Made by a program: the position numbers and the translations under genes
The notes under the pieces: model-generated
What the model saw: only the letters and a program-made list of their open reading frames with translations
The model's database searches: none
Told to the model about the DNA's origin: nothing
Source: Delftia acidovorans NBRC 14950
Lineage (GTDB): Bacteria; Pseudomonadota; Gammaproteobacteria; Burkholderiales; Burkholderiaceae_C
Reading direction: 5' to 3'
Length of the DNA stretch: 32,000 bases
Assembly: GCF_001598795.1 (NCBI RefSeq)
Contig: NZ_BCZP01000014.1
Coordinates: 1-32,000, forward strand
Shown: piece after piece, positions 13,771-27,046 of the stretch
Layout: each line of letters opens with the position of its first letter
How positions within the stretch are numbered: position 1 is the stretch's first letter

Positions 13771-14799
13771 ATGAGCATGACCCCTATCGCCCGCCAGGCT
13801 GCCAGCCACCCTTCCCGCCGCCGCGTGCTCGGCGCGGGGCTGGGCCTGGGTGTGCTGGCGCCGCTTGCGGCGCTGGCCGCCGAAGGCAAGGCCGCCGGCT
13901 ACCCCACGCGCCAGATCAGCTTCATCGTGCCGTTTCCGGCCGGTGGCTCGGTGGACGCCATGGCGCGCCAGTATGCCGAGCCCATGGCGCGCATCCTGGG
14001 CGTGCCCATCGTGGTGGAGAACCGGCCCGGCGCGGGCGGCTCGGTGGCTGCGCTTGCCGTGGCGCGCGCCAGGCCCGATGGCTACACCCTGGTCGTGTCC
14101 TCGCAGAGCAGCCATCTGGCCAATCCGCTGACCCAGCCCAAGGTGGGCTACGACCCCATCAAGGATTTCGAGAACATCGCCATCCTGGGCCGCCTGCCCA
14201 ATGTGCTGGTCGTGCCCGCGAGCCTGCCCATCCGCAGCTTTGCGGAGTTCATCGCCTATGCCAAAAAGCATCCTGGCCAGCTCAACTACGGCAGCGGTGG
14301 CACGGGCAGCATGGGCCAGCTCAACATGGAGATGTTCAAGGCCGATGCGGGCCTGGACATCACCCATGTTCCCTACCGGGGCGGCACGCTGCTGGTCACC
14401 TCGGTGCTGGCGGGCGAGGTGCAGGTGTTCTTCGACAACCTCATCTCCATGCTGCCCCACATCCAGGCAGGCAAGGTGCGCGCCCTGGCCGTGGCCTCCG
14501 AGCAGCGCGTGGCACAAATTCCCGATGTGCCCACGCTGGCCGAGGTCGGCTACCCGCAGCTGAACATGAGCTCCTGGACCGGCCTGGCCGCGCCGGCCGG
14601 CACGCCCGCGCCCGTGGTGCAGGCCCTCTTCAAGGCCGTGCGCCAGGCCGCCACGGCGCCGGCCATGGTGGCCAGCCTGCAGGACCGTGGCGTGACGCCG
14701 CCCGAGGAAATGAGCCCTGCCGCCTTCGAGGCCATGATGTCCGAGCGCCTGAAGCGCTTTGGCGAGGTGGTGCGCAGGACGGGCATCGTGGCCGAGTGA
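13771..14799 (+). CDS. Bug-family (TctC-like) substrate-binding protein, tandem paralogue of the preceding gene
   Basis: 342 aa. Tat-like signal SRRRVLGAGLGLGVLAPLAALAA. AGGAGGAG RBS at 13761-13768. By eye about 70% amino-acid identity to 12678..13694, with near-identical nucleotide tracts. Confidence 0.92.
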   Translation: MSMTPIARQAASHPSRRRVLGAGLGLGVLAPLAALAAEGKAAGYPTRQISFIVPFPAGGSVDAMARQYAEPMARILGVPIVVENRPGAGGSVAALAVARARPDGYTLVVSSQSSHLANPLTQPKVGYDPIKDFENIAILGRLPNVLVVPASLPIRSFAEFIAYAKKHPGQLNYGSGGTGSMGQLNMEMFKADAGLDITHVPYRGGTLLVTSVLAGEVQVFFDNLISMLPHIQAGKVRALAVASEQRVAQIPDVPTLAEVGYPQLNMSSWTGLAAPAGTPAPVVQALFKAVRQAATAPAMVASLQDRGVTPPEEMSPAAFEAMMSERLKRFGEVVRRTGIVAE

Positions 14800-14823
14800 G
14801 CCTGGCCCGCCAAGGGCCTGCCC

Positions 14824-15813
14824 TCAGTCCAGCTGCACGCCCACCTCGCGCACCAGCCGCCCCCAGTCCGCCAGGTCCTGGCGCAGCGTGTCGGCGAATT
14901 GCGCGGGCGTGGTCCGGGGCAGATCGGTCAGGTTGAGCTCGCCCAGCTTTTTGGCCGTGGCCGGGTCCTGCAGCAACTGATTGATGGCGGCGTTGAGCTT
15001 GTCCACGATGGGCTGCGGCGTCCTGGCCGGCGCGAAGACGCCGTACCAGGAATAGTTGTGGAACGGGTAGCCCGCCTCGGTCAGGCTGGGCAGGTCCGGC
15101 TGGCTGGGAATGCGCTTGTCACCGCTGTGGGCGATGGCGCGCACGCGGCCCGCACGCACCAGCTCCACCGTTGACGAGGTGTCTGCAAACGCCGCCTGCA
15201 CCTGCCCGCCCAGCAGGCCCTGCACGCAGGGGCTGCTGCCCTTGTAGGGCACATGCTGCATCTGCAGGCCGGCCTGCTTGAGCAGGAATTCCATGGTCAG
15301 GTGCCCGCCCGAGCCCTGGCCCCAGGAGCAGTAGCTGAGCTGGCCTGGCCGTGCGCTTGCATAGGCCACGAACTCCTTGAGCGTGTGCACGGGCAGATCG
15401 CGCGAGACCAGCAGCAGATTGCCGGCGCGCCCTATCTGCGCAATGGGCGTGAAGTCCTTCACCGGGTCATAGGGCACCTTGCGGTAGAGGCTGGGGTTCA
15501 CGGCCATGGACGCCGTGTAGGTGAACAGCAGCCGGTAGCCGTCCGGCGCACTGCGCGCGGCCTGCTCCACGCCGACCAGGCCGTTGGCGCCGGGCCGGTT
15601 GTCCACCACGAAGGGTTGCTTGAGCAGCCGGGTCAGGCCTTCGGCAAACACCCGCGCGATGGTGTCCGTGCCGCCGGCGGCGGCCGTGGGCACGATCAGC
15701 GTGACGGGGCGGGCGGGGTAGTTGCCGGCATCCTGTGCCGGCTGGGCGTGGCCTGTGCAGGCCATGGCCAGCAGCAGTGCCAGGGCCATGCCGTGCTTCT
15801 TCATCGTCTTCAT
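14824..15813 (-). CDS. Bug-family (TctC-like) substrate-binding protein; last gene of the minus-strand operon
   Basis: 329 aa. Sec signal MKTMKKHGMALALLLAMACTGHA. Bug signatures YPARPVTLIVPTAAAGGTD, VDNRPGANG, PDGYRL, DPVKDF, PYKGS, QPDLPS. AAGGAG RBS. Confidence 0.92.
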   Translation of the reverse strand: MKTMKKHGMALALLLAMACTGHAQPAQDAGNYPARPVTLIVPTAAAGGTDTIARVFAEGLTRLLKQPFVVDNRPGANGLVGVEQAARSAPDGYRLLFTYTASMAVNPSLYRKVPYDPVKDFTPIAQIGRAGNLLLVSRDLPVHTLKEFVAYASARPGQLSYCSWGQGSGGHLTMEFLLKQAGLQMQHVPYKGSSPCVQGLLGGQVQAAFADTSSTVELVRAGRVRAIAHSGDKRIPSQPDLPSLTEAGYPFHNYSWYGVFAPARTPQPIVDKLNAAINQLLQDPATAKKLGELNLTDLPRTTPAQFADTLRQDLADWGRLVREVGVQLD

Positions 15814-15819
15814 GCACTT

Positions 15820-15849
15820 GTCTCCTTGTGTCGCCTTGAGTCGCCTTGC
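15820..15849 (-). repeat. Three tandem 10-mers upstream of the Bug gene, the proximal copy forming its RBS
   Basis: Plus strand reads GTCTCCTTGT GTCGCCTTGA GTCGCCTTGC. On the coding strand this is GCAAGGCGAC TCAAGGCGAC ACAAGGAGAC, followed by AAGTGC-ATG. Confidence 0.6.
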
Positions 15850-15864
15850 CTGTGCGCGGCCCCG

Positions 15865-17118
15865 TCAGCGCAGCCCCAGGCGCGCCTGCGTGCCTTGCTC
15901 GATCATGTCGGCCCCCACCCGGTAGAGGTTGCGCGAGACATAGCTGTCCACCTCGCGCGCACGCTCGCGCAGCCAGGCGGCCTTCAGGCTGCGGGCCTGG
16001 CCGATCTCGGGCGCGTCTCCGGTCGCCGTGGCCAGCACGTCGATCACATGCAGGGCCAGCTGCCACTGGCCCGCGTCGGCCAGCGCCTGGGCGCTGGCCA
16101 CCAAGCCGGGCTTGTCGGTGATGGCATCGGCAATGGCGGCGCCTGCGGCCTCGGGCGGGGCCGGGTGCAGCGTGGTCGGGTTGCGGTCCCACCAGCCGTT
16201 TTCCGAACGGTAGATGTCGCGCACGATGTAGCTGGGGTCGCCATAGGTGGGCTTCATCCACTCCACGCCGAACAGCTCCTGCGGATAGTCCATGGCCGCG
16301 AGCACCTGCTGCTCGTTCAGGCCCTCGTTCATCAGGTGCACGACTTCGGCGCGCAGCCAGCGCAGCGCCTGTGCGGTGTGCAGCAGCACCTGCTGCACGG
16401 CCTGCTCGCCCTCGATCACGGGACCGAACTCGCGCACGGCCTTGAGCGGGCGCAGCGCGGCCATGGCCTGCAGCGTGTCGGCCCAGCGCACGGTGTCGCG
16501 CAGCGTGCGAAACGGCGTGCCGATGTTGGGGATGGAGTCCAGCAGCGCCGCGCCGCCGTACAGCACGCGCTGGCCGGGGCTCCACAGCGCGATGGCGTCG
16601 TCGGTCTCGGACGGCGCCCAGAACAGCTCGATGCGGCTGTCCCCGCTGCCTATCTCCAGCCGCGTGTCGAAGGTTTCGGTGGGCTCGTGCATGTCCAGCC
16701 GGTGCTCGAAAAAGCCCGCGCTGCGGTTGAACTGGATCTCGGCCATGCGGTGCTGCAGCGCCCGGGTCTCGCGGTAGCGTGCCTGGCGGCGCGGCAGGTT
16801 GCGGTGCGCGATCAGGCGCGGCACAGGTTCTCCGCGCGCGGCCGCATGCTCCAGCCAGGCGGGCACGCCCGCGTTGTAGCCGATGTGGCCGTGGCTGTAG
16901 CACAGCGCATGCACGGGCGCGTCGCTGAGCTGGCGCAGGCTGGCGATCATGTCCTGGCTGACCTTGCCGCCGGGGCCGGCGTCGATCACCACCAGGCCCG
17001 CGTCGGTCTCGGCCACAAAGGACTGGCCCTGGCCGCGCAATATGTGCAGGCCCGGCGCCACGGTTTCGCTGCCGGTGCCAACCAGCAAAAAGGGCTTGTC
17101 GTCGTCTCTGGCGTTCAT
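15865..17118 (-). CDS. Metallo-beta-lactamase-fold protein related to type III alkyl/aryl-sulfatases; MBL and dimerisation domains present, no SCP2 domain
   Basis: Start at the internal ATG 17118 (MNARDDDKPF...), in an ATGA overlap with the upstream stop and with a GGAGAC RBS. MBL core ...GLVVIDAGPGG...VHALCYSHGHIGYNAG. The C-terminal helical part (GQWQLALHVIDVLATATGDAPEIGQARSLKAAWLRERAREVDSYVSRNLYRVGADMIE) resembles the alkylsulfatase dimerisation domain. No signal peptide. Confidence 0.75.
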   Translation of the reverse strand: MNARDDDKPFLLVGTGSETVAPGLHILRGQGQSFVAETDAGLVVIDAGPGGKVSQDMIASLRQLSDAPVHALCYSHGHIGYNAGVPAWLEHAAARGEPVPRLIAHRNLPRRQARYRETRALQHRMAEIQFNRSAGFFEHRLDMHEPTETFDTRLEIGSGDSRIELFWAPSETDDAIALWSPGQRVLYGGAALLDSIPNIGTPFRTLRDTVRWADTLQAMAALRPLKAVREFGPVIEGEQAVQQVLLHTAQALRWLRAEVVHLMNEGLNEQQVLAAMDYPQELFGVEWMKPTYGDPSYIVRDIYRSENGWWDRNPTTLHPAPPEAAGAAIADAITDKPGLVASAQALADAGQWQLALHVIDVLATATGDAPEIGQARSLKAAWLRERAREVDSYVSRNLYRVGADMIEQGTQARLGLR

Positions 17119-18458
17119 GGGGTCTCCGGGTCTGGTTCGATGGGGGGCAGGGCGTAGCGGCCGTCCAGCAGTTCGGGCCGTGGCATGTAGGCGCGCAGGC
17201 ACAGGTAAAAGCCTTCGCGCGGCGCGGGCAGCCAGTTGGCGCGGTGGTCTTCGCTGGCCGGCGGCGCATGGCTGATGTGGATAGTCAACCCGCCATCGCC
17301 ATCGCCATCAGCGTCGGGGCGCAGGCCCGGCGTGCGGTCGCCGATGGCATAGCGGTCGATGGGGTTGTCCACCAGCATGCAGTCGTGGGCGCCGTAGAGG
17401 GTCAGGGACCAGAAGGCCTGCACGGGCGGCAGCGCGCCTGGGGCAAAGCGCAGCCGGTAGCGGCGGCTGCCATGCAGGGGCCGGCCCTGGGCGTCATGCC
17501 AGGCCAGCGGGTAGATGGCCTCGCGGCTTTCCAGCATGCCGATGTACTTGAGCGCAATTTCGGCGCGGGCCTGGAAGTCGTCGCCAAAACTGCCTTCGAC
17601 CAGGGCGGGGAGTTCCCAGCCCGAGTCCAGGCGCCGGCCCGTGCTGGCCGCGCGCAGCCGGGGCAGCACGCTGTCCAGGGCGCGCTGCAGTGCGGCTTGC
17701 TGTTGCGCATCGGGTGCGCCCAGCCCGGCGCCCAGGCCGACGGCAGCAAAGCGCGCGACCCGTGCGGCATGCCCTGCCGGCGGCGGGTTGTCGCGCAAGG
17801 CGGCATTCACCTGGGCTGCATAGTGCTCGGCATTTGGCGGGGCCTGGGGATCGCAGTCCGGGTCGAAGGCGCGGGCCTGCGAGGGCGTGCCCGCCTGCCA
17901 GTCGGCCAGCGGGCGCACCGCAAAGCCGTCCTGCAGCGCGTGCACGGCGGGCAGGTCATGCTCGCCATCGACCAGGATGCGGCCTATCACCCACAGCCAG
18001 GGCGTGGGCGCGGCAATGTGTGCGCCGGGCGCATCGAACGGTGGCGGCAGCGCCCCCTGCCAGCCGGGCGGCGTGACAAGGAAGGAGCGCGCAGCCGTGC
18101 CCGTCAGGCGCTGGCCCAGGTGGGCGAAGGGGTTGGTGAAGAAGTCCAGCAGGCCCAGGACGTAGTAGCGGCCCGCCGTGTCGGGCACGTCGATCACCAG
18201 CGGCCCGGCGCCCAGGTCCAGCCAGGCGTTGGTGTAGAGCGTGTCGTTGTTGGGCGTGACCACGCGGCTGGTGCCGGCGCGCAGCAGCTGGCGTGCATGC
18301 ACGAACTGGTTGCACCAGCGCAGCGGTGCGGGCGCGGCCTCGCCCGCCGCATTGCGCCGGGGCGAGGTGGCCGCGCGCATGCGGCGCATCTCGTACAGCG
18401 GGCAGGTGTGGATGACGGCCTCCTCGGCCAGGGTGCTCAGGTCCATGGCGTGTCTCAT
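17115..18458 (-). CDS. DUF1254 + DUF1214 domain protein of unknown function (paralogue B)
   Basis: DUF1254-type block VVTPNNDTLYTNAWLDLGAGPLVIDVPDTAGRYYVLGLLDFFTNPF. DUF1214-type block EAIYPLAWHD..PL.GSRRYRLRF..PPVQAFWSLTLY...NWLPAPREGFYLCLRAYMP. Start placed at ATG 18458 (ATGA overlap with the upstream stop at 18455-18457); alternatives are 18446 and 18491. No signal peptide. Confidence 0.8.
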   Translation of the reverse strand: MRHAMDLSTLAEEAVIHTCPLYEMRRMRAATSPRRNAAGEAAPAPLRWCNQFVHARQLLRAGTSRVVTPNNDTLYTNAWLDLGAGPLVIDVPDTAGRYYVLGLLDFFTNPFAHLGQRLTGTAARSFLVTPPGWQGALPPPFDAPGAHIAAPTPWLWVIGRILVDGEHDLPAVHALQDGFAVRPLADWQAGTPSQARAFDPDCDPQAPPNAEHYAAQVNAALRDNPPPAGHAARVARFAAVGLGAGLGAPDAQQQAALQRALDSVLPRLRAASTGRRLDSGWELPALVEGSFGDDFQARAEIALKYIGMLESREAIYPLAWHDAQGRPLHGSRRYRLRFAPGALPPVQAFWSLTLYGAHDCMLVDNPIDRYAIGDRTPGLRPDADGDGDGGLTIHISHAPPASEDHRANWLPAPREGFYLCLRAYMPRPELLDGRYALPPIEPDPETP

Positions 18459-19840
18459 GCGGCCACGGGCTGCAGGGGCGGAACAGGCCATTGGTGCGCG
18501 TCTGCCTGCGGGTGGTACATGCGCAGGATGAGGTAGAAGCGCCCGTGCGGCGTGGGCAGCCAGTTGGCGGCGCCCTGTGCCGGCCGGGCATGGCCCAGGT
18601 CGATCTGCAGGCTGCCGTCGGCCTCGCGCAGCAATCCCGGCGTGCGGTCCCCTATGGAGTGGCGGCCGATCTCGTTGCCGTAGAGAAAGCGGTCGGCGTC
18701 ATACAGGGTGACCGACCAGAAGGCGTCGGCCGGCGGCATGTCGGCGGCATTGAAGCGCAGCACATAGCGCTGGCTGCCGTCCAGCGGCTGCAGGCCTGCG
18801 TCGTGGTGGGCGGCGGCGTAGATGGCCTCGCTGGTGGCCAGCGCGCCCAGGCCCAGGTAGGCGGTGCGTGCGCGGCCCAGGTACTCGCTGCCGTAGCGGC
18901 CGGTGGACGGCGTCATGGTCCAGGGCCGGGGACGGCGGTTGCGCCCCATGGCGGCCACGGTGCGCACGCCGTCGGCAAAGCCCTCGGTCAGGCCTTCGCG
19001 CACGGGCTCCTCCAGCTGCTCCCACGCCATGTGGGCGCTGGCCACCAGGCCGGCCTGGCCGAACCAGGCCAGCAGCCCCTGGTCCTCCTTGCGGCCAGGC
19101 GCCTCGGCCAGCGCATGGCAGAGGTTGGCAAAAAATCGCGGCGCAACCTCGGCCGCAGGCTCCTGGTTCTCGAAGGCGGCCGCCATGGCGTCCACGGGCG
19201 GGCCGACCCAGTTCGTGACGGCGGCCGGGCGGCCTCCTTTCGGCGTGCCTGGCGCGGGCTCCAGCCGGATGTCGGCCTGCAGTGCGCGGGCTGCAGGCCA
19301 GTCGGGCGCATCGCCCACCACGGTGCGGCCGATCAGCCAGACCAGGTTGCTGGGGCAGTGCACCAGGCGGTGGCCGGCCAGGTGTTCCGGCACCTGGCCG
19401 CCCGGCCCGACCAGGACCACGGTCTCGCCTTCGGGCGCGCAGTTGCGCGGTCCCAGGTTCTCGAAATTCTCGGTATAGGCGTCGTACAGGGCCAGCACGA
19501 AGTAGCGGCCCGGATGCGCGGCGCTGGAGGGCACGGTCAGCAGGCGCGGGCCGTCGGCCAGGTGGATCCAGGCCAGCGAGTACAGCAGGTCGTTGGCGGG
19601 CGTGACCACGTCGCGGTCCTCATGGGTGGAGGGGCGCTGGCTGTGGTGCAGCGTGTCGAAGTCGCCGCGCATGTCCAGGCCCAGGCCGGTGGCGCGCGCG
19701 GCGCCGGCATCGGTCTGCAGGCGGCAGGTGCGGTAGGTCTCTATCAGCGGATAGCCGTAGACAAAGGCGGCCAGGCCGATGGAGCGCGCCAGGGCGCGGC
19801 GGACTTCGGGCAGGGAGGGAGGGGTCGGGTTCATGTCCAT
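18455..19840 (-). CDS. DUF1254 + DUF1214 domain protein of unknown function (paralogue A)
   Basis: 461 aa. VVTPANDLLYSLAWIHLADGPRLLTVPSSAAHPGRYFVLALYDAYTENF (DUF1254) and EAIYAAAHHDAGLQPLDGSQRYVLRF...PPADAFWSVTLYD...NWLPTPHGRFYLILRMYHP (DUF1214). No signal peptide. Confidence 0.85.
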   Translation of the reverse strand: MDMNPTPPSLPEVRRALARSIGLAAFVYGYPLIETYRTCRLQTDAGAARATGLGLDMRGDFDTLHHSQRPSTHEDRDVVTPANDLLYSLAWIHLADGPRLLTVPSSAAHPGRYFVLALYDAYTENFENLGPRNCAPEGETVVLVGPGGQVPEHLAGHRLVHCPSNLVWLIGRTVVGDAPDWPAARALQADIRLEPAPGTPKGGRPAAVTNWVGPPVDAMAAAFENQEPAAEVAPRFFANLCHALAEAPGRKEDQGLLAWFGQAGLVASAHMAWEQLEEPVREGLTEGFADGVRTVAAMGRNRRPRPWTMTPSTGRYGSEYLGRARTAYLGLGALATSEAIYAAAHHDAGLQPLDGSQRYVLRFNAADMPPADAFWSVTLYDADRFLYGNEIGRHSIGDRTPGLLREADGSLQIDLGHARPAQGAANWLPTPHGRFYLILRMYHPQADAHQWPVPPLQPVAA

Positions 19841-19864
19841 TGTTTTCTTCAGGGCAGGAGGGGG

Positions 19865-20845
19865 TCAGTCGAGGGTCACGCCCGTGGAGCGCGCCAGGTC
19901 CAGCGCCACGGGCAAAAAGGCGGCGTAGGCGGCGCTGGCCTCGGCCGGGCTGTTGCCCTGGGCCTCCAGGCCCAGCGCCTCGACACGCTGGCGCACCTGG
20001 GGCTCGCGCATCACCGCGGCGACCTCGCGGCCCAGGCGTTCGACGATGGCGTCGGGCGTGCGCACGGGCGCCATCAGCGAGATCGATCCCGTGATGGCAT
20101 ACACGGGCTCGCGGTAGCCCTGCTCGGCAAAGGTGGGCACATCGGGCAGGGCCTTGCTGCGGCGCGGTCCGGCCACGGCCAGGGCGCGCAGCTTGCCGGC
20201 GTCGATGAAGGGCTTGAGCGTGGCGGCCGAGCCCAGCGTCATCTGGATCACGCCGCTGATCAGGTCGATGGACATGGGCCCCTCGCCCTTGTAGGCCACG
20301 TGCAGCGACTGCAGGCCGTAGGCCTTGTCCATGAAGACCTGGACCTGGTGCGGCTGCGTGCCCGCGCCCCAGGAACCCATGGCGTACTTGCCCGGCGACT
20401 GGCGCACGGCCTCGACCAGTCCCTTGAAGTCCTTGGCCGGCACGGCCGGGTTGACCGCCATCACCATGGAGGGCGAGACCACGTCCGAGACCATGCGCAG
20501 CTCGGTGCGCGGGTCGTAGGGCAGCTTCTTGTAGAGCACCAGGTTGGCCGTGATGGGCCCGGGCACGGTCAGCAGCAGGGTGTGGCCGTCGGGCGCGCTC
20601 TTGGCCACATGCTCGGTGCCGATGATGCCGCCCGCGCCGCTGCGGTTGTCCACCACCACGGGCTGGCCCAGGCGCTTGGCCAGGCCCTCGGCCAGGATGC
20701 GCGCCACGGTGTCGGTGGAGCCGCCTGCCTGGTATTGCACGACGATGCGCACGGGCCGGGCGGGATAGCCGTCCTGGGCCAGCGCGGCGCTGCAGGCCAG
20801 GGCAAGGCAGGTCAGTGCGGCGGTGCGCAGCAGGGGTGTGTTCAT
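19865..20845 (-). CDS. Bug-family (TctC-like) substrate-binding protein
   Basis: Start at ATG 20845 (MNTPLLRTAALTCLALACSAALA signal) with GGAGG 6 nt upstream. Alternative ATG 20887 forms an ATGA overlap with the upstream stop. Bug signatures YPARPVRIVVQYQAGGSTD, VDNRSGAGG, PDGHTL, YKGEGP, LPDVPT. The longer track ORF (to 21241) overlaps the acyl-CoA synthetase gene. Confidence 0.9.
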   Translation of the reverse strand: MNTPLLRTAALTCLALACSAALAQDGYPARPVRIVVQYQAGGSTDTVARILAEGLAKRLGQPVVVDNRSGAGGIIGTEHVAKSAPDGHTLLLTVPGPITANLVLYKKLPYDPRTELRMVSDVVSPSMVMAVNPAVPAKDFKGLVEAVRQSPGKYAMGSWGAGTQPHQVQVFMDKAYGLQSLHVAYKGEGPMSIDLISGVIQMTLGSAATLKPFIDAGKLRALAVAGPRRSKALPDVPTFAEQGYREPVYAITGSISLMAPVRTPDAIVERLGREVAAVMREPQVRQRVEALGLEAQGNSPAEASAAYAAFLPVALDLARSTGVTLD

Positions 20846-20883
20846 GGTGGCCTCCGGGTGGGAGATGGAATGGGCATTGGCTT

Positions 20884-23010
20884 TCATGCAGCCTCCCTGC
20901 CGATGACCAGCGCATCGACGGCCACGCAGCCGCCGTCCTCGCGCGGGCGGGCGATCAGGGGGTTGATCTCGGCGCTTTCCAGCGTGGCGCCTGCGCGCTG
21001 CGCAAAGCCGGCCAGGGCGCACAGCGTGTCGGCAATGCTGTCCAGATCCACGCGGGGGCGGCCGCGCGCGCCGTCCAGCACGGCAAAGGCCCGCAGCTCG
21101 CGCACCATGGCCAGCGCGTCGTCGCGCGTGATGGGCAGCAGGCGCAGCGAGACATCGCGCAGGATCTCGGCATGGATGCCGCCCAGCCCGAACATCAGCA
21201 CCGGGCCGAACACCGGGTCGCGGTGCACGCCGGCGATGCACTCCACGCCGCCCTGCACCATGGGGGCGGCCAGCGCGCCGTCGATGTGCGCATCGGGCCG
21301 GGCCTGGCGCGCATTGGCCAGGATGCGGTCGAAGGCGGCCTGGGCGCCGGCCGCATCCGCCAGGTTCAGTGCCACGCCGCCCACGTCGGACTTGTGGGCG
21401 ATGGCATCGCTGCAGACCTTGAGGGCAATACGTCCGCCCATCTCCTGCGCTGCCTGCACGGCTTGCGCTGCCTCGGCCGCCGTGCGCACCAGCCGGTGCG
21501 GCACCACGGGCACGCCGGCCTCGGCCAGCAGGGTCATGCTGCGCTGCTCCGACAGCGTGCCCGCCGGCAGGTGCAGCGCGCTGCCTGCATCGGCCATCGC
21601 GGGCAAAGCCTGCGGTGTTTCATGCAGGCGGGCCAGCGCGCCAATGCAGCGTATGGCCGCGCCCGGGTCGGCAAACACCAGGCAGCCCAGCGCCTCCAGC
21701 GCATCGCGGCGCTCGGGCGGGCACAGCGTGCTGACGGCCAGCAGGATGTCGGGATTGTGGGTGCGCAGCGTCTGCACCAGGCTTTGCAGCACGGGCCAGA
21801 AGGCGTCGGACAGGCCGCCTGCCGCGAAGAAGCCCAGCCAGCTGTCGAACTGCCGGTCGGCCAGCATCAGGCGGGCGCTGCGCTCCAGCAGCGTCATGTC
21901 GTTGGTGACCTGGCCCGTGATGTCCACGGGGTTGCGCGGCGCGGCAAACGGCACCCATTCGCGCAGCTGGCGCTGGGCCGCATCGGACAGCGGTGCCACA
22001 TCCAGGCCGGCTGCGCTGGCATCGTCGGCCATCATGGCGCCCACGCCGCCCGAGACCGTGAACAGTCCGATGGACCGCCCCTTGGGGGCCCGCGCGATGG
22101 AGGCACTGGCCGCCAGCGCGAAGAAGTCGGTGATGGAATGCGCGCGCAGCACGCCGTAGCGGCGGAACACCGCGTCATAGACGGCATCGTTGCCCGCCAG
22201 CGAGGCCGTGTGCGATGCGGCAGCGGCCGCGCCCAGGGCGCTGGTGCCCACCTTGCACATGACCACGGGCTTGCCGCGCTCCTGCGCCAGGGCCAGGGCC
22301 GCGCGCAGCCGGGGGCCGTCGCGGCAGCCTTCCATGTAGGCCATGATCACGTCGGTCTCGGGGTCCTGGGCCAGCCAGGCCAGGCCATCGGCCAGCTGCA
22401 CATCGGCCTCGTTGCCCGTGGTGGCCCACAGCGACAGGCCCAGCCCACGCTCGCGCGCCAGGCTGTAGGCATAGGCACCGAAGGCGCCCGACTGGCTGAC
22501 CATGCCGATGCGCCCGGGCCGCACCAGCCCGCCGCCCGGCGCGGGCGAGAACGTGGCGTAGACCTGGTGGCCGGGGCGCATGAAGCCCAGGCAGTTCGGG
22601 CCGATGAGGCGTATGCCCGCCTCCTGCGCGCGCCGCGCCAGCGCCTGCTGGGCGGCCGTGCCGTCGGAGCCGGTCTCGGCATAGCCCGAGGAAAACAGCA
22701 CCATGGACTGCACGCGCGCGGCGGCCGCATCCTCCAGCACGCCGGCCACCTGCGACTGCGGCACGGCGACGATGGCCAGGTCCACCGGCGCGCCGATGGC
22801 GGCCAGCCGCTCGTGCGCGGGCAGGCCCTGCACGCGGCTGGCGCGCGGGTTCACCGCATACAGCGCGCCGCCGTAGCCGAAGCGCAGCAGGTAGTCCAGC
22901 GGAATGCCGCCGATCTTGCTGGCCTGGTCCGAGGCGCCGACCACGGCGATGGAGCGCGGCGCAAACAGCGCGTCGAGCCGGGAAGTGTCGAAGCAATGGC
23001 TGTCGGTCAT
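20884..23010 (-). CDS. Acetate--CoA ligase family protein (NDP-forming acyl-CoA synthetase, fused alpha/beta, ACD type)
   Basis: 708 aa. CoA-binding N-terminus (PRSIAVVGASDQASKIGG), CoA-ligase domain (GIRLIGPNCLGF), phosphohistidine loop SHTASLAGNDAVYDAVFRRYGV, and a C-terminal ATP-grasp (GGRIALKVCSDAIAHKSDVGGVALNL). No GNAT domain, so it is not a Pat-type acetyltransferase. Confidence 0.88.
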   Translation of the reverse strand: MTDSHCFDTSRLDALFAPRSIAVVGASDQASKIGGIPLDYLLRFGYGGALYAVNPRASRVQGLPAHERLAAIGAPVDLAIVAVPQSQVAGVLEDAAAARVQSMVLFSSGYAETGSDGTAAQQALARRAQEAGIRLIGPNCLGFMRPGHQVYATFSPAPGGGLVRPGRIGMVSQSGAFGAYAYSLARERGLGLSLWATTGNEADVQLADGLAWLAQDPETDVIMAYMEGCRDGPRLRAALALAQERGKPVVMCKVGTSALGAAAAASHTASLAGNDAVYDAVFRRYGVLRAHSITDFFALAASASIARAPKGRSIGLFTVSGGVGAMMADDASAAGLDVAPLSDAAQRQLREWVPFAAPRNPVDITGQVTNDMTLLERSARLMLADRQFDSWLGFFAAGGLSDAFWPVLQSLVQTLRTHNPDILLAVSTLCPPERRDALEALGCLVFADPGAAIRCIGALARLHETPQALPAMADAGSALHLPAGTLSEQRSMTLLAEAGVPVVPHRLVRTAAEAAQAVQAAQEMGGRIALKVCSDAIAHKSDVGGVALNLADAAGAQAAFDRILANARQARPDAHIDGALAAPMVQGGVECIAGVHRDPVFGPVLMFGLGGIHAEILRDVSLRLLPITRDDALAMVRELRAFAVLDGARGRPRVDLDSIADTLCALAGFAQRAGATLESAEINPLIARPREDGGCVAVDALVIGREAA

Positions 23011-23019
23011 GTGTGTCCC

Positions 23020-24084
23020 TCAGAAGTTGTGGCGCACACCCAGCGCCAGGGACCGCACGCCGTCGCCGCTGTTGGCGGCCACCGGCACGTTGGCAATGGC
23101 GGCCGAGGCATTGGCCGCGTTGCCCAGCTGCAGCCAGCGCGCGTAGAGCACGGTGCGCTTGCTCAGCGCGTAGTCGTAGCCCAGCGTCCAGGTGTTCTGG
23201 GCGCGGTCCGTACCGCCCACCTCGCGCCGCGCCACCGAGACCAGCAGCTTGGAGCGCGCATCCAAGCTCCAATCGGCGCCCAGCTGGGCCAGCTTCGCCT
23301 TGGGTGTGCCGGCACGGTCCACGCGGTTGATGACGTAGTTGCCCGTCAGGCGCAGGCCGTCCAGGGCTTCCCAGCTGGCCGACAACGCCTGGTAGTGGCT
23401 GGTGGCGGGTGCGGCCACAGGTGCGGCGGCGCTGCCTTCCACGGACTTCTGGAAGCTGTAGGCCAGGAACCAGGGCTTCTGGTTCCAGCCCAGCGTGGCG
23501 CCGTAGAGGCGGCCGTTGTTGCTGTTCGGCGAAGCCACTTCGCCGAAGGAATAGGCCAGGTCCGCCAGCCAGGGCTGGCCTGCCGGCGTGCGGTAGCGCA
23601 CCAGGTTGTTGGCCCGCGCCGCAAACGGCCGCAGGCTGGCCTGGGCATCGGTGGCCGACACCAGGTTCAGCGAGGAAAACAGCGCGTTCATGCCCAGCGG
23701 ATCGGCGCGGAACAGCGCGCCGAACATGGGCGTATACATGCGGCCCATCTCCACGGCGCCCCAGCCGCTGTTCAGTCCTACCCAGGCCTGCCGCGTGAAG
23801 GCCAGGCCCGGGCCGGGAATGGTGCCCAGGCCCGTGTCCGGCGCCACGCCGGCCTCCAGCATGAACTGGGCGCGCAGGCCGCCGCCCAGGTCCTCGCTGC
23901 CGCGAAAGCCGATGCGCGATGCCGCGCTGCCCCCGTCCTCCAGCCGGCTCAGGCGCGTGGCGCCCGACCTTGCGCTGTTGATGTGGACGTCGACGATGCC
24001 GAACATCTCCACGCTGCCCTGCGCCCACGCGGACGTGCCCAGGGCCGCCATGCCGCCGGCGGCCAGCCAATGCTTGTGCTTCAC
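23020..24084 (-). CDS. Outer-membrane porin (Gram-negative general porin, Omp32/OmpC-like); first gene of the operon
   Basis: 354 aa. GTG start at 24084 with AAGGAG 8 nt upstream. Signal peptide ...AAGGMAALGTSAWA. GSVEMFGIVDVHIN first strand, alternating beta-strand pattern, and the C-terminal LALGVRHNF motif with terminal Phe. Confidence 0.9.
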   Translation of the reverse strand: MKHKHWLAAGGMAALGTSAWAQGSVEMFGIVDVHINSARSGATRLSRLEDGGSAASRIGFRGSEDLGGGLRAQFMLEAGVAPDTGLGTIPGPGLAFTRQAWVGLNSGWGAVEMGRMYTPMFGALFRADPLGMNALFSSLNLVSATDAQASLRPFAARANNLVRYRTPAGQPWLADLAYSFGEVASPNSNNGRLYGATLGWNQKPWFLAYSFQKSVEGSAAAPVAAPATSHYQALSASWEALDGLRLTGNYVINRVDRAGTPKAKLAQLGADWSLDARSKLLVSVARREVGGTDRAQNTWTLGYDYALSKRTVLYARWLQLGNAANASAAIANVPVAANSGDGVRSLALGVRHNF

Positions 24085-24165
24085 GAACTTGTCTCCTTGG
24101 TAGCGCCCCGGATGCTTTGCCCGGTGGCTTGCTTGCTACTATCCCGAGCGACAGGGGATGCACTC

Positions 24166-24181
24166 TGTCAAGCCATTGACA
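24166..24181. promoter_or_regulatory. Perfect 16-bp palindrome TGTCAA-GCCA-TTGACA; candidate operator of the Crp/Fnr-family regulator
   Basis: Located in the 153-bp divergent spacer, 82 bp from the porin start and 57 bp from the regulator ATG. Dyad geometry (two half-sites, 4-nt spacer) fits Crp/Fnr-family dimers, but the half-sites are not the canonical FNR or CRP sequence. Confidence 0.5.
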
Positions 24182-24237
24182 AATGGCGGTACATGGGCAC
24201 CGGACTAACCCGGGGCCTTCGACATCGTGAGAGAACC

Positions 24238-24975
24238 ATGCGCTCCAAGCCTGCTCCCGTGGCCGACCCTTCGGCGCTGATCCGCCGCGCCCTGGGCCTG
24301 TGCCGCATGCTGCGCAACTGGCCGCCCGAGGTGCTGGATGAGCTGACGGCGCTGTCCCGCCTGGGCCGCTACGAGCGCCACCAGCAGGTGCGCGCCGCCG
24401 ACCCCAAGCGGCGCGAGGTGCTGGTGGTGGCTTCGGGCTGCGTGGAAGTGGGCGGCGTGGACGCCACGGGCTCGCGCTTCGTGCTGTCCATGCACAGCGC
24501 GGGCGACATCGTCGGCCTGGCGCGGCTGCTGGAGCACACGCAATTCGTCTACGACTACCACGCGCACCAGCCCACGGTGCTGGTGGAGATTCCCGGCGAG
24601 TCCTTCCTGGCCCTGCTCGATGCCCATCCGCCGCTGTGGAAGGACATCTGCCTGCTGGTGCTGGCACGCATGCACGAGCTGATCGTCGTCCAGCAGCGCC
24701 ACGCCTTCAGCAACATCGACAACCGCGTGGCCGAACTGCTGGCGCGGCTGGCCCCCACGCATGGCCAGCCCGCGCCCGACGGGCAGGGCGTGGTGCTGCG
24801 CATCTCGCAGAGCGACCTGGCCGCCATGCTGTCGGTCTCGCGCCAGACCATCAACAAGGAGCTGCGCCTGCTGGAGCAGCGGGGCCTGCTGCAGGCCGCC
24901 TATGGCCGGCTGACCATCGTCGACCTGGCGGGCCTGCTGCGCCTGTCCGATGCGGGCGCGCGGCCGGGGCCCTAG
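24238..24975 (+). CDS. Crp/Fnr-family transcriptional regulator
   Basis: This is the last 245 codons of the 1386-aa track ORF; only this part looks like real protein. It has a beta-roll effector domain (VLVVASGCVEVGG..GSRFVLSMHSAGDIVGL) and a C-terminal HTH (ISQSDLAAMLSVSRQTINKELRLLEQRGLL). No FNR Cys cluster and no obvious cAMP phosphate-binding R-[ST]-A. Alternative start at 24193. Confidence 0.85.
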   Translation: MRSKPAPVADPSALIRRALGLCRMLRNWPPEVLDELTALSRLGRYERHQQVRAADPKRREVLVVASGCVEVGGVDATGSRFVLSMHSAGDIVGLARLLEHTQFVYDYHAHQPTVLVEIPGESFLALLDAHPPLWKDICLLVLARMHELIVVQQRHAFSNIDNRVAELLARLAPTHGQPAPDGQGVVLRISQSDLAAMLSVSRQTINKELRLLEQRGLLQAAYGRLTIVDLAGLLRLSDAGARPGP

Positions 24976-24991
24976 CCCCGGTCCGCGGGAA

Positions 24992-25921
24992 TCAGTCCTC
25001 GTCCAGAGGCGAGGCATCCTCGCCGAACAGGGCCTGGCCGTCGGCGCGCAGCAGCTCCAGCATGTGCCGGGCTGCGGGCGACAGATAGCCGTCGCGCCGG
25101 CAGGTCACGCCCAGGTGGCGGCGCAGCGTGGTGGCCGGCAGGCGCACTTCCCTGAGCGTGCGGCTGCGCTCCAGCCGCAGCGTGTGGCGCGAGACGAAGG
25201 TCAGCAGATCGGTCTTGGCCACCATGCGCGGCAGCAGCGGGATGGAGCCCGCCTCCACCTGCACCGTGGGCGCCGGCATGCCGCGCGAGGTGAAGGCCTG
25301 GTCCAGCCATTGCCGGCTGGGAATGTTGGCGCTGGGCAGGGCCCAGGGATGGCGCAGCAGCGCGGCCATGGTGATGCGCTGGCGCTCGAAGACGGGATGG
25401 TCCTGGCGCGCCGCGACCACCACCACATCCTCGGCAATCGGGTGGGAGACCAGCTCCGGATCGCCCTCGGCCGTGAGGCCGATCAGCAGGTCCAGTTGGC
25501 CCTCGCGCAGGCGGTCGCGCAGTTCCCAGCTGGGGCCGATCACGATGCTGATGGTGATGCGCCGCCCGTCGGCCAGGGCTTTGCTGCACAGCTCGGGCAG
25601 CAGGTGGTCGGCGGCCACCGGCCCGCTGCCGATGCGCACATGGCCGGCATGGCCTTCGTTGAAGTCGCGCACCTCGCGCAGCGCCTCCTGGCTGGCATTG
25701 CGTAGCATGCGTGCGCGCGCCAGCAGCACATCGCCCAGCGGCGTGAGGCGTATGCCGCGCCCGGCACGCTCGAACAGCGCGCCGCCCACGGTCAGTTCCA
25801 GGCGCTGTATGCATTTGCTCAGCGCGGGCTGGGTGCGCCCCAGCTGTTCTGCGGCCCGGCCCAGGTGCCCGAGGTCGGCCACGATCTCGAAGAAGCGCAG
25901 GTCGCGCAGGTGCAGGTCCAT
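24992..25921 (-). CDS. LysR-family transcriptional regulator
   Basis: 309 aa. MDLHLRDLRFFEIVADLGHLGRAAEQLGRTQPALSKCIQRLE HTH plus a LysR substrate-binding domain. Divergent from the dehydrogenase/aldolase operon. Confidence 0.9.
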   Translation of the reverse strand: MDLHLRDLRFFEIVADLGHLGRAAEQLGRTQPALSKCIQRLELTVGGALFERAGRGIRLTPLGDVLLARARMLRNASQEALREVRDFNEGHAGHVRIGSGPVAADHLLPELCSKALADGRRITISIVIGPSWELRDRLREGQLDLLIGLTAEGDPELVSHPIAEDVVVVAARQDHPVFERQRITMAALLRHPWALPSANIPSRQWLDQAFTSRGMPAPTVQVEAGSIPLLPRMVAKTDLLTFVSRHTLRLERSRTLREVRLPATTLRRHLGVTCRRDGYLSPAARHMLELLRADGQALFGEDASPLDED

Positions 25922-25941
25922 CGATGAATAAAAGTGATGTT

Positions 25942-25954
25942 TGAATGAACATTA
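25942..25954. promoter_or_regulatory. Candidate LysR T-N11-A box (TGAATGAACATTA)
   Basis: T-N11-A spacing with an internal dyad AATG-AA-CATT, inside an AT-rich spacer. GAATG pentamers recur at 25943, 25957, 25966 and 25985. Located 21 bp from the LysR start codon. Confidence 0.35.
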
Positions 25955-27023: not shown

Positions 27024-27046
27024 GCTGTTTTTCCCGGAGATTTGCC

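Follow-up and report, generated by a model that had tools for sequence, protein, structure and literature searches.

Several described systems resemble parts of the Delftia operon analyzed here. Type III alkylsulfatases (SdsA1, Pisa1, SdsAP, and YjcS) are built of an MBL domain, a helical dimerisation domain, and a C-terminal SCP2-like domain. The terephthalate- and isophthalate-binding proteins TphC and IphC of Comamonas are orphan Bug proteins, with TpiBA encoded elsewhere. Proteins of the 'VPA0735-like' two-domain fold, such as VPA0735 and VPA0106 (2P3Y, 3VB9, 3U07) and Burkholderia 6ANS, are structural-genomics entries without function. In the window, i.e., the whole 32-kb stretch of Delftia acidovorans DNA that was analyzed, relatives of all three groups are encoded side by side together with an acyl-CoA synthetase, and we consider it rather probable that they form a ligand-induced operon for the uptake and CoA-dependent breakdown of an anionic organic acid.

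A seven-gene operon and its divergent regulator

Seven co-oriented genes span positions 14824-24084 of the minus strand, bounded by a divergent regulator gene on one side and a convergent gene past the last gene, Bug2, on the other. The features are as follows:

24238-24975, plus strand: Crp/Fnr-family regulator gene (245 aa), divergent from the operon
23020-24084, minus strand: porin gene (354 aa, GTG start, signal peptide; Pfam Porin_4, 9.1e-40)
20884-23010, minus strand: ACD gene, fused alpha-beta NDP-forming acyl-CoA synthetase (708 aa)
19865-20887, minus strand: Bug1 gene, periplasmic TTT-family (TctC) solute-binding protein (Pfam TctC, 2.2e-61)
18455-19840, minus strand: DUF-A gene (461 aa, no signal peptide; DUF1254/DUF1214, Pfam 1e-37 and 1.1e-34)
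17115-18458, minus strand: DUF-B gene (447 aa, no signal peptide; DUF1254/DUF1214, Pfam 4.2e-48 and 3.6e-34)
15865-17118, minus strand: MBL gene (417 aa, 'group A'; Pfam Lactamase_B and Alkyl_sulf_dimr)
14824-15813, minus strand: Bug2 gene, second TTT-family solute-binding protein (Pfam TctC, 1e-71)

Counted from the porin gene, the junctions measure 9, -4, 24, -4, -4, and 51 bp. The preliminary description had given this gene order with gaps of at most 51 bp, two ATGA overlaps (18455-18458 and 17115-17118), and a possible third (20884-20887); all its coordinates agree with those re-measured, all three 4-bp overlaps are present, and the start at the third is plausible because a GGGAGG Shine-Dalgarno sequence lies 6 nt upstream of it. 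Its domain calls for the operon and regulator proteins were likewise each matched by Pfam. A search for terminator-like sites in the intergenic gaps of the operon found none, which, together with the 4-bp overlaps and a single conserved operator-promoter, is consistent with the presumed co-transcription of the seven genes. Among the operon proteins, signal peptides are carried only by the porin, Bug1, and Bug2, and the MBL, DUF-A, and DUF-B proteins are predicted to be cytoplasmic.

The divergent Crp/Fnr-family gene, already recognized in the preliminary description, encodes HTH_Crp_2 (3.2e-15) and cNMP_binding (2.4e-10) domains; the protein scores 45.7 bits against the NCBIfam CRP equivalog (cut-off 266), and its N-terminus contains no Fnr-type cysteine cluster. 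The gene is nested in a spurious high-GC open reading frame of 1386 aa that ends at 24975. A divergent homolog of the regulator was found in 37 of the 80 related loci. The spacer shared by the regulator and the porin genes contains two further elements:

24166-24181, strand not applicable: operator-like inverted repeat TGTCAA-N4-TTGACA (letters TGTCAAGCCATTGACA) in the shared 153-bp spacer
24138-24143, minus strand: -10-like hexamer GATAGT, 22 nt downstream of the operator on the operon strand

The inverted repeat occurs once in the window (chance expectation 0.02). It had been called a perfect palindrome, which holds for its 6-nt arms but not for the element as a whole, since its 4-nt centre, GCCA, lacks self-complementarity. 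Of 38 Crp-type spacers in other genomes, 26 contain an exact copy; ten of the remaining 12 were examined, and all had a degenerate operator, with the promoter-proximal half-site TTGACA intact in seven. The distance of 21-22 nt from the operator to the hexamer (GATAGT, CATAGT, TATCGT, or TACAGT) holds across genera and would place the operator centre near -41.5/-42.5. This geometry fits a predicted class II activator site, and we infer that the regulator acts by activation rather than repression.

The acyl-CoA synthetase and the Bug proteins

The ACD comprises CoA_binding_2, Succ_CoA_lig, and ATP-grasp_5 domains (Pfam), and its phosphohistidine loop SHTASLAG, described earlier as intact, is indeed so (residues 266-273). 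Its nearest solved relatives are 3-hydroxypropionate-CoA ligase (5.5e-91), 4-hydroxybutyrate-CoA ligase (1.4e-85), and the DMSP lyase DddX (4.7e-71). Since it scores only 337-362 bits against NCBIfam equivalogs, in every case far below the cut-offs of 1200-1300, no substrate was assigned to it.

Bug1 and Bug2 are 36% identical. A Bug1 ortholog occupies the same position across Comamonadaceae, while Bug2 resembles solved Bug-family binding proteins, among them the terephthalate-binding 8HKA (1.8e-54) and entry 5OEI, the adipate-binding AdpC. Because Bug genes are very abundant in the Delftia genome and five lie in the 32-kb window, a Bug neighbor alone carries little weight. No TctA/TctB gene was found within the window; the preliminary description had pointed out this absence, which stands, but it is usual for orphan Bug genes and not a peculiarity of the locus.

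An alkylsulfatase-like protein with an altered metal site

The MBL protein combines the MBL fold with an alkylsulfatase-dimerisation domain and has no SCP2 domain. It had been described as truncated, which is misleading because the SCP2-less architecture of about 417 aa is conserved across hundreds of homologs; judged from its sequence, the protein belongs to a distinct, conserved subfamily of about 420 aa (group A). The view of it as a decayed or truncated sulfatase was therefore rejected in favor of a conserved subfamily with one metal site lost. The motif SHGHIGYN stands in place of HxHxDH. H76, H78, and E171 are invariant, and the substitutions D80G, H81Y, D190A/P, and H231F are fixed in group A down to 36% identity; other relatives of about 420 aa retain all metal ligands. 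With the roles of the ligands in the alkylsulfatase-type site assigned according to PMC5426288, the second metal site is lost, as its Asp, His, bridging carboxylate, and His are all replaced. The active-site loops were modeled with pLDDT below 50 (residues 77-79, 195-203, and 309-320), and given the four lost ligands the protein could be non-catalytic.

These features bear on an alternative that we consider unlikely, namely that the substrate is a carboxylate with a sulfate ester, used for carbon, sulfur scavenging, or both, and that the MBL protein is still a sulfatase or a sulfate-eliminating lyase. Its nearest folds and sequences are those of the type III alkylsulfatases Pisa1, SdsA1, SdsAP, and YjcS, and N198, T201, R207, and Y292 are conserved at the positions of Pisa1 N318, T321, R328, and Y417, which Knaus et al. 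are said to have described in 2012 as sulfate contacts. However, the replacement of four ligands precludes the binuclear zinc centre with which this enzyme class activates its nucleophilic water, Pro197 is aligned with the sulfate-protonating histidine of alkylsulfatases (presumably the general acid His317 of Pisa1), and the SCP2 domain is missing. The neighborhoods are likewise divided. Genomes L065 and L073 have a Cys-type sulfatase (motif CSPTR; cytoplasmic, without signal peptide) inserted directly upstream of ACD-DUFA-DUFB, a canonical unit of a 639-aa alkylsulfatase, ADH, and Bug adjoins the group-A cluster in L088, and sulfotransferase domains are fused to canonical short relatives; yet sulfatase neighbors occur in only two of 80 loci, the operon proteins do not show the Cys and Met depletion typical of sulfate-starvation proteins, and the locus regulators are of Crp, TetR, LysR, and IclR types, with no evident CysB link.

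The DUF1254/DUF1214 pair

DUF-A and DUF-B are 36% identical, and DUF-B is an ancient paralog of DUF-A: A-type and B-type copies can be told apart in Comamonadaceae, Verticiella, Herbaspirillum, and Cupriavidus. An alignment of 38 sequences including both paralogs contains about 60 invariant columns. The AF2 model of DUF-A (pLDDT 91.5) matched only the uncharacterized entries 3U07, 2P3Y, 3VB9, and 6ANS in Foldseek, and the two proteins probably form a heteromer. A search of the PDB, NCBIfam, and a library of full-text papers found no homolog of DUF-A, DUF-B, or the MBL protein with an assigned pathway or function, in agreement with the preliminary description, which had given the three proteins no chemistry and had named no characterized pathway with this gene combination: their PDB matches are structural-genomics entries or true alkylsulfatases, and no NCBIfam family scored above its cut-off.

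Conservation of the gene cluster

The seven-gene order is not confined to this strain. Of 80 related genomes, 27 have it unchanged, and each of these that was inspected also has an adjacent Crp-family gene. The block occurs in many soil Betaproteobacteria, and its flanks differ between six genera (Delftia, Comamonas, Xenophilus, Variovorax, Pseudorhodoferax, and Pseudacidovorax). In other Burkholderiales the genes are reshuffled but remain linked, as seen in Verticiella (MBL-ACD-Bug-Bug-DUFA-DUFB), Herbaspirillum (DUFA-DUFB-Bug-MBL-ACD-Bug-porin), Rhodoferax-like genomes, and Cupriavidus. In 67 of the 80 loci, the gene next downstream of the group-A MBL gene encodes a Bug protein; a porin homolog lies within 10 kb of the MBL gene in 56 loci, and an ACD gene adjoins it in 53. 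The tightest evolutionary core is MBL-Bug, followed by the DUF genes, with ACD, porin, and Bug1 as frequent but dispensable partners. Since the ACD is missing from about a third of the loci and a variant cluster with IclR and an alpha/beta hydrolase has two MBL copies but no DUF genes, the seven genes represent one combination of modules rather than an indivisible machine.

Other neighbors of group-A MBL genes are CoA-transferase III, enoyl-CoA hydratase, thiolase, 4HBT thioesterase, and paired PimC/PimD-like acyl-CoA dehydrogenases; like the ACD, they speak for a link to CoA chemistry in the preferred reading. A further, also improbable alternative is uptake of a pimelate- or adipate-like dicarboxylate and its entry into beta-oxidation, in which the ACD would be a dicarboxylyl-CoA synthetase while MBL and DUF would play an accessory part, e.g., in hydrolysis of a mono-ester or another derivative. 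In Cupriavidus and in L091, the MBL-Bug unit adjoins such a dehydrogenase pair, whose best NCBIfam matches are the two subunits of pimeloyl-CoA dehydrogenase, the large PimC (342-350 bits) and the small PimD (236 bits), along with a succinate-glutarate CoA-transferase-like enzyme, enoyl-CoA hydratase, thiolase, Bug, and porin. The ACD family also includes PauA, the pimeloyl-CoA synthetase of Pseudomonas mendocina, and the likeness of Bug2 to 8HKA and 5OEI points the same way. However, all these NCBIfam matches fall well short of the curated cut-offs (624-750 bits), such beta-oxidation genes are absent from the Delftia window and the Comamonadaceae blocks, and MBL and DUF, the genes with the strongest conservation, are left without a role.

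That there is no single pathway, the Bug genes being juxtaposed with unrelated enzymes by chance or synteny or DUF-DUF-MBL serving as non-enzymatic sensors or scaffolds, is very unlikely: Bug genes are indeed frequent, the MBL metal site is degenerate, DUF1254/DUF1214 have no known function, and more distant group-A MBLs (36-44% identity) have unrelated neighbors, but six genera keep the complete block between unrelated flanks, its linkage outlasts extensive reshuffling in four other lineages, three junctions overlap by 4 bp, one conserved operator-promoter precedes the first gene, and both DUF paralogs match both domains strongly, with their invariant columns.

A candidate pathway

What we have before us is a real, conserved, and uncharacterized CoA-linked catabolic module. 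In the preferred reading of induced uptake and breakdown of an organic acid, the substrate would pass the outer membrane via the dedicated porin and be captured in the periplasm by the two different Bug (TctC-type) proteins, which would pass it on to a TctA/TctB membrane unit whose genes lie at another locus. Inside the cell, the substrate or a compound formed from it would become a CoA thioester through the ADP-forming ACD, and the pathway-specific chemistry would fall to the group-A MBL protein, putatively of alkylsulfatase descent and no longer holding a two-metal centre, together with both DUF1254/DUF1214 paralogs; this direction and order of reactions, including the preliminary description's sequence of CoA activation before the three uncharacterized proteins, are tentative. 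The Crp-family regulator would bind TGTCAA-N4-TTGACA and activate transcription once its effector is present. Our best guess for the substrate, a lead and not a result, is a mono- or dicarboxylate of small or medium size that is O-substituted, bearing a hydroxy, ester, or sulfate-ester group. As a lead to a new catabolic pathway, the operon is solid without being extraordinary.

Comparison with known systems

The Delftia MBL protein shares with type III alkylsulfatases the MBL domain, the helical dimerisation domain after it, and the zinc-site-2 ligands (His-x-His and Glu), whereas their SCP2-like domain has no counterpart in it, and it carries Gly and Tyr where HxHxDH has its Asp and His, Ala for the bridging carboxylate, and Phe for the final His. 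The Delftia ACD has the fused architecture of about 700 aa, the phosphohistidine loop, and the ATP-grasp domain of 9Y43 (3-hydroxypropionate-CoA ligase), 8WZU (4-hydroxybutyrate-CoA ligase), and 7CM9 (DddX), but its operon partners differ from theirs. As in TphC/IphC-type operons, a Bug gene sits inside a substrate-specific catabolic operon with the TctA/TctB-type membrane unit elsewhere; in place of dioxygenases, however, the Delftia operon encodes an ACD, an MBL protein, and DUF proteins, and it has a dedicated porin as well as two different Bug proteins. The Delftia DUFs share the two-domain fold of VPA0735, VPA0106, and 6ANS (Foldseek E 1e-24 to 1e-26, TM about 0.7) but, unlike these, are tandem paralogs without signal peptides in a CoA-linked operon. 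Finally, counterparts of the Rhodopseudomonas palustris pim genes (TIGR03203 and TIGR03204), i.e., the below-cut-off PimC/PimD-like pair with CoA-transferase and hydratase, adjoin MBL-Bug in Cupriavidus and L091, whereas the Delftia operon contains none of them.

Organization of the operon

We consider that the seven minus-strand genes from the porin through Bug2 probably make up a ligand-induced operon for the uptake and CoA-dependent catabolism of an anionic organic acid. Their layout is as proposed in the preliminary description, and each domain assignment is backed by Pfam:

23020-24084, minus strand: porin, with a GTG start
20884-23010, minus strand: fused ADP-forming acyl-CoA synthetase (ACD), by Pfam
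19865-20887, minus strand: TctC-type periplasmic binding protein Bug1, by Pfam PF03401
18455-19840, minus strand: DUF-A (DUF1254/DUF1214), by Pfam
17115-18458, minus strand: DUF-B, its DUF1254/DUF1214 paralogue, by Pfam
15865-17118, minus strand: MBL-fold and alkylsulfatase-dimerization protein (MBL protein), by Pfam
14824-15813, minus strand: Bug2, by Pfam PF03401
24238-24975, plus strand: Crp-family regulator, by Pfam

From the porin to Bug2, the junctions measure 9, -4, 24, -4, -4, and 51 bp; all three ATGA overlaps are present, including the one at the start of Bug1 that had been called only possible, and the genes are presumably co-transcribed. The divergent Crp-family gene marks one boundary of the operon, and a convergent Bug gene whose end lies at 14799 marks the second. 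The regulator gene forms the last part of a long spurious high-GC open reading frame, which accounts for the end coordinate, 24975, of the preliminary description. Because the DNA has about 70% G+C, long spurious frames, the largest of 1386 aa, lie antisense to real genes (e.g. 20815-24975, plus strand), and real frames were told apart from them by the GC content of third codon positions (GC3) and by Pfam matches. Four terminator-like sites were detected (2.7 expected), none of them within any intergenic gap, and an Rfam scan of positions 14000-26000 gave no family at the gathering score.

Among the operon proteins, signal peptides are restricted to the porin, Bug1, and Bug2; ACD, DUF-A, DUF-B, and the MBL protein look cytoplasmic, judged from their N-termini. 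An identical 13-mer, CAAGGAGACAAGT, lies on the minus strand at 15816-15828 and 24087-24099, directly upstream of the start codons of the last gene (Bug2) and the first (porin), the products of which are both exported. It is absent elsewhere in the window (0.01 occurrences expected by chance) and may be a common strong translation-initiation region of these two genes. The spacer between the MBL gene and Bug2 carries three tandem CAAGG(C/A)GAC units.

Conservation of the gene order

A scan of one genome per species yielded 352 stretches with a match; the best 80 loci were retained, and the eight window proteins were mapped onto them by tblastn. A crude GC3-based gene caller was also applied to high-GC loci; since it fails on lower-GC loci such as Herbaspirillum, the co-occurrence counts are based on tblastn with the window proteins. 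Among these best 80 of 352 loci, a Bug gene lies directly downstream of the MBL gene in 67, at least one DUF1254/DUF1214 gene lies within 10 kb in 64, and at least two such genes are found in 46, while the locus contains an ACD in 53 cases, a porin in 56, and a Crp homologue in 37. Conservation outside this strain, on which the preliminary description had made its proposal depend, was evident, as the exact seven-gene order occurs in 27 of the same 80 loci. The block is intact in six genera (Delftia, Comamonas, Xenophilus, Variovorax, Pseudorhodoferax, and Pseudacidovorax), with flanks that vary by genus. Other orders were as follows:

Acidovorax: Crp / ACD-DUFA-DUFB-MBL-Bug-Bug
Verticiella: MBL-ACD-Bug-Bug-DUFA-DUFB
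Herbaspirillum and Noviherbaspirillum: DUFA-DUFB-Bug-MBL-ACD-Bug-porin
Rhodoferax-like genomes: DUFB-DUFA-ACD, divergent from TetR-MBL-Bug
Cupriavidus: LysR-MBL-Bug, adjoining divergent genes for CoA-transferase III, enoyl-CoA hydratase, two acyl-CoA dehydrogenases, Bug, and porin

This linkage has withstood rearrangement and the exchange of one regulator type for another (Crp, TetR, LysR) and thereby provides good evidence that the operon genes form a functional unit.

The MBL protein and its subfamily

Pfam detected Lactamase_B (3.4e-12) and Alkyl_sulf_dimr (1.5e-34) in the MBL protein and no Alkyl_sulf_C domain (SCP2-like, PF14864), the chain ending at residue 417, after the dimerization domain. 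Although the preliminary description had called it truncated, it is not a decayed or shortened sulfatase, since its length is conserved in a large family of about 420 aa. There are 926 word-sharing homologues with E ≤ 1e-10, the full-length ones among the matches listed being almost all 411-425 aa, and in a library of representatives at 50% identity the family comprises 94 clusters at E ≤ 1e-30 and 801 at E ≤ 1e-10. The protein is 99% identical to its counterpart in D. tsuruhatensis NBRC 16741 and 97% identical to that in D. acidovorans. With its AF2 model (pLDDT 78.5, lowest confidence at the active-site loops), the best Foldseek matches were Pisa1, YjcS, and SdsA1, and the CoA-thioesterase PqsE came next.

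We use the term group A (MBL-A) for the relatives that share at least 36% identity with the MBL protein; those at 36-44% identity stand in unrelated or very short contexts. All group-A members carry S-H-G-H-x-G-Y-N in place of the canonical H-x-H-x-D-H. When 13 group-A and 54 canonical sequences were compared column by column, His76, His78, and Glu171 proved invariant in both sets, and it emerged that canonical Asp80, His81, Asp190, and His231 are replaced in group A by Gly, Tyr, Ala/Pro, and Phe, respectively. The window protein itself reads H76-G-H78-I-G80-Y81, retains E171, and has Ala at 190 and Phe at 231; its set of ligands for a binuclear zinc site (HxHxDH, Glu, bridging Glu/Asp, and His) is incomplete. 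In a profile alignment to Pisa1 and YjcS, these positions fall on the HxHxDH motif, on the TAD aspartate, and on the final histidine. In SdsAP, His192, His194, and Glu303 bind one zinc and Asp196, His197, and His367 the other, with Glu322 bridging (PMC5426288); the binuclear cluster of alkylsulfatases activates the attacking water, and the leaving sulfate is protonated by a histidine (reviewed in PMC3920027). Since the replacements leave only a 2-His-1-Glu site, group A cannot, to judge from its sequences, build a binuclear metal center. Pro197 of the MBL protein aligns with Pisa1 His317, presumably the sulfate-protonating histidine, and the residues aligned with Pisa1 N318, T321, R328, and Y417, which we take to be sulfate contacts, are conserved. 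Polar residues newly fixed in group A are Y81, N82, D208, R229, E230, E306, R312, and D335. In this group, a scaffold derived from alkylsulfatases has cleanly and consistently lost one metal site, which suggests that it either performs a new mononuclear chemistry or has a non-catalytic role.

In several longer relatives (P0162, P0166, P0176, P0191, P0196, P0202, P0222, and P0245 in the protein listings), the MBL and dimerization module is fused to START lipid-binding, Sulfotransfer_3, or SAM methyltransferase domains. These architectures appear undescribed and suggest sulfation or desulfation of lipids. None of the long relatives bears a DUF1254/DUF1214 or ACD domain.

The DUF1254/DUF1214 pair

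DUF-A and DUF-B each match both DUF1254 and DUF1214 strongly in Pfam and are 36% identical to one another. Copies of the A and B types are separately recognizable from Comamonadaceae through Cupriavidus, so the duplication is old and both copies have been maintained, which, together with the 4-bp overlaps, suggests a heteromer. Comamonas composti, Ottowia, C. gilardii, and C. metallidurans CH34 have one copy only. About 60 columns, many of them Arg, Asp, Tyr, or Trp, are invariant across the A-type orthologues and the B paralogue. The confident AF2 model of DUF-A (pLDDT 91.5) has a VPA0735-like fold (3U07 and 2P3Y at E 1e-24 to 1e-26), and Foldseek against the PDB up to April 2026 returned only uncharacterized structural-genomics entries (3U07, 2P3Y, 3VB9, and 6ANS). 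NCBIfam holds no model for either protein, and the 120 listed homologues are unnamed, DUF1254, or hypothetical, with the exception of P0376, which has the UniRef label phosphatidylserine decarboxylase.

The family occurs in bacteria, archaea, and fungi and has had crystal structures since 2007, but we know of no function for it. Full-text literature searches on DUF1254/DUF1214 (VPA0735, VPA0106, COG5361, PF06742/PF06863) retrieved no functional study, and those on alkyl sulfatase dimerization and ACD with genus names no functional work; a paper on Malassezia only speculated that the DUF family is a glycosyl-hydrolase-like jelly roll. Nor does the literature searched describe the present gene combination, in agreement with the earlier statement that no characterized pathway has it. 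The operon places the apparently cytoplasmic pair in a defined, regulated, CoA-linked setting, in which the function of the family is directly testable, and the hosts (Delftia, Comamonas, Variovorax, and Cupriavidus) are easily grown and genetically tractable.

Acyl-CoA synthetase and uptake proteins

ACD belongs to the ACD superfamily by its Pfam domains (CoA_binding_2, Succ_CoA_lig, Ligase_CoA_2, and ATP-grasp_5) and by its phosphohistidine loop, since SHTASLAG, previously reported as intact, was found at residues 266-273. Among proteins of solved structure, it is closest to 3-hydroxypropionate-CoA ligase (5.5e-91), to 4-hydroxybutyrate-CoA ligase (1.4e-85), and to the DMSP lyase DddX (4.7e-71), and its PDB relatives are ADP-forming ligases. 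Against the NCBIfam equivalogs for acetate-, 3-hydroxypropionate-, and 4-hydroxybutyrate-CoA ligases it scored 362, 361, and 337 bits, far below the respective cut-offs of 1200, 1300, and 1300, and hence no substrate was assigned.

Bug1 and Bug2 match the TctC family PF03401 (2.2e-61 and 1e-71) and are 36% identical; Bug2 is about equally similar to BugE, BugD, the terephthalate-binding protein 8HKA, and 5OEI, which we take to be the adipate-binding AdpC. The window contains five TctC-type Bug genes (12678-13694, 13771-14799, 14824-15813, 19865-20887, and 27804-28787), which fits the expansion of Bug genes typical of Comamonadaceae and Alcaligenaceae. As noted previously for the operon, no TctA/TctB gene or domain is present, and this holds for the whole 32-kb window. 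In Bordetella, Cupriavidus, and Comamonas, orphan Bug genes normally depend on a TctA/TctB unit encoded elsewhere, so the missing membrane component is expected. No TctA was found among the multi-span proteins sampled from related loci, which were MFS, EamA, CDP-diglyceride synthase (cytidylyltransferase), and ABC permease proteins; an MFS transporter is present instead in a few loci.

Regulator and promoter region

The regulator consists of an N-terminal cNMP-binding-like domain (2.4e-10) and a C-terminal HTH_Crp_2 domain (3.2e-15), and it reached 45.7 bits with the NCBIfam CRP equivalog (cut-off 266) and 28.4 bits with Fnr (cut-off 228). Its cysteines are few and scattered, with no N-terminal Fnr-type cluster, and its predicted effector is likely a small molecule. 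The spacer shared with the porin gene carries TGTCAA-GCCA-TTGACA at 24166-24181, first described as a perfect palindrome: the 6-nt arms are indeed perfect, but the center is non-palindromic. This operator-like element is single in the window (0.02 matches expected by chance). With a variable center (TGTCAA-N4-TTGACA), it is found in 26 of the 38 spacers that separate a Crp homologue from the first gene of the operon; in the 10 examined of the remaining 12, it is degenerate, with the proximal half-site TTGACA intact in 7. In Variovorax, the arms reach 11 nt (GAATCTGTCAA / TTGACAGATTC). A -10-like hexamer (GATAGT, CATAGT, TATCGT, or TACAGT) invariably follows 21-22 nt past the operator, which would put the operator center near -41.5/-42.5, as in class II activation of the CRP/FNR type. 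The scan detected no sigma-70 consensus promoter (-35/-10 pair), which fits an activator-dependent promoter although it is by itself uninformative. The Crp-family protein would thus be an effector-responsive activator of the operon and might also regulate its own gene.

Variant and neighboring clusters

Group-A MBL genes also occur in clusters devoid of DUF1254/DUF1214 genes:

C. necator N-1 plasmid pBB2 (locus L085): ACD, three Bug, two tandem group-A MBL, alpha/beta hydrolase, IclR
Locus L088: Bug, MBL-A, alpha/beta hydrolase, ACD; a second, divergent MBL-A; 4HBT thioesterase
Locus L091: LysR, MBL-A, MBL-A, alpha/beta hydrolase, IclR; beside Crp, two dehydrogenases, hydratase, and thiolase

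The recurrent module (L085, 10553-14140; L088, 7549-14333; L091, 9875-14214) comprises two tandem or divergent MBL-A paralogues, an alpha/beta hydrolase, and IclR, together with ACD and Bug or with MFS transporters. For the hydrolase, the nearest models are of the haloalkane-dehalogenase and HsaD types, with scores below cut-off. The annotated pBB2 record gives generic gene names only. The DUF pair and the second MBL protein with its hydrolase may be alternative solutions. On a stromatolite contig, MBL-A is followed by an NMO/FabK-like protein and a CoA-transferase III. The CoA link of group-A MBL genes is robust, since an ACD, CoA-transferase, dehydrogenases, hydratase, thiolase, or thioesterase recurs beside them.

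Such hints as there are favor an O-substituted or a dicarboxylic acid as the substrate, none of them being decisive. Two Comamonadaceae/Burkholderiaceae genomes (L065, 6828-9092; L073, 6816-9080) have an insertion between the divergent promoter region and ACD-DUFA-DUFB that encodes a cytoplasmic 754-aa Cys-type (CSPTR) sulfatase with no signal peptide, and in L088 a canonical alkylsulfatase-ADH-Bug unit adjoins the group-A cluster. These genes and the retained, presumed sulfate contacts speak for a sulfate-ester pathway in which the sulfate group is the target of the MBL protein; as the ligands of the water-activating metal cluster and the presumed protonating histidine are replaced in it, we regard this as improbable. 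The paired dehydrogenases of Cupriavidus and L091 best match the PimC/PimD subunits of pimeloyl-CoA dehydrogenase, and the CoA-transferase best matches succinate-glutarate CoA-transferase, each below cut-off. They would suit a dicarboxylate entry module with the MBL and DUF proteins as accessories, which we find equally improbable: PimC/PimD and their partner beta-oxidation enzymes are absent from the window, and PimC/PimD-like genes lie beside MBL-Bug only in Cupriavidus and L091. Sulfur scavenging was considered and rejected: the operon proteins contain 1.7-3.8% Cys+Met and other window proteins 0.6-6.1%, with no clear depletion in the former, so that sulfate-starvation proteins are unsupported. 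In L065, a second sulfatase and a class III aminotransferase are encoded nearby.

As for the surroundings of the operon, FecI-like ECF sigma, FecR-like anti-sigma, and TonB-dependent receptor (with STN domain) genes at 6030-10461 on the plus strand are predicted to be a cell-surface signaling iron-uptake unit, adjoined by an RpiR regulator, an M20 peptidase, and two Bug genes. In Comamonas testosteroni, ABC transporter/LysR/TRAP genes come immediately after Bug2; in Delftia, the stretch from the iron unit to these Bug genes is inserted in between. Beyond the Crp gene, a second candidate catabolic cluster (24992-31138) comprises LysR on the minus strand and then a D-2-hydroxyacid dehydrogenase, an RraA-like/HMG-aldolase-type protein, Bug, an FMN-dependent alpha-hydroxyacid dehydrogenase, and an amidohydrolase. 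An NYN ribonuclease plus OST-HTH/LOTUS protein occupies 31172-32000 and continues past the window end; the NYN-domain gene on pBB2 (L085, 18574-19401), a few kb from the group-A MBL cluster, is probably a coincidence.

Proposed function and comparison with known systems

In the catabolic operon that we favor, the acid would enter through the porin, be captured by Bug1 and Bug2, cross the inner membrane by a remote TctAB unit, and be activated by ACD; the pathway-specific step(s) would fall to the group-A MBL protein together with DUF-A and DUF-B. The DUF pair and MBL-A, with its 2-His-1-Glu site, might even be a new enzyme system for a CoA-linked transformation unlike any described so far, such as the elimination or cleavage of an O-linked group (a sulfate, an ester, or another) from an activated acyl-CoA; we put this forward tentatively, as possible but rather doubtful. 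If true, it would give DUF1254/DUF1214 its first biochemical function and the MBL superfamily a new catalytic type. That the genes serve no single pathway, or that the DUF and MBL proteins are non-enzymatic, is compatible with the lost metal site and, given the conserved linkage, the least probable of the explanations.

Conserved operons of unknown function are common, and the present cluster is well supported and experimentally tractable, with nothing yet surprising in kind. Its study could deorphanize DUF1254/DUF1214; the identity of the substrate would do so for two Bug binding proteins and would add a missing route of carbon, and possibly sulfur, cycling in common soil and wastewater Betaproteobacteria.

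In layout, the Delftia operon is like numerous other Burkholderiales operons for the catabolism of specific substrates, in which a porin and an orphan Bug protein accompany a CoA-activating enzyme. With type III alkylsulfatases, the MBL protein shares the MBL and dimerization domains; however, it is devoid of two defining features, the full zinc ligand set and the SCP2-like domain, and on these grounds would fall outside the functional alkylsulfatase family. The type of system is therefore familiar, whereas its central enzymes are uncharacterized, one of them with a remodeled active site.
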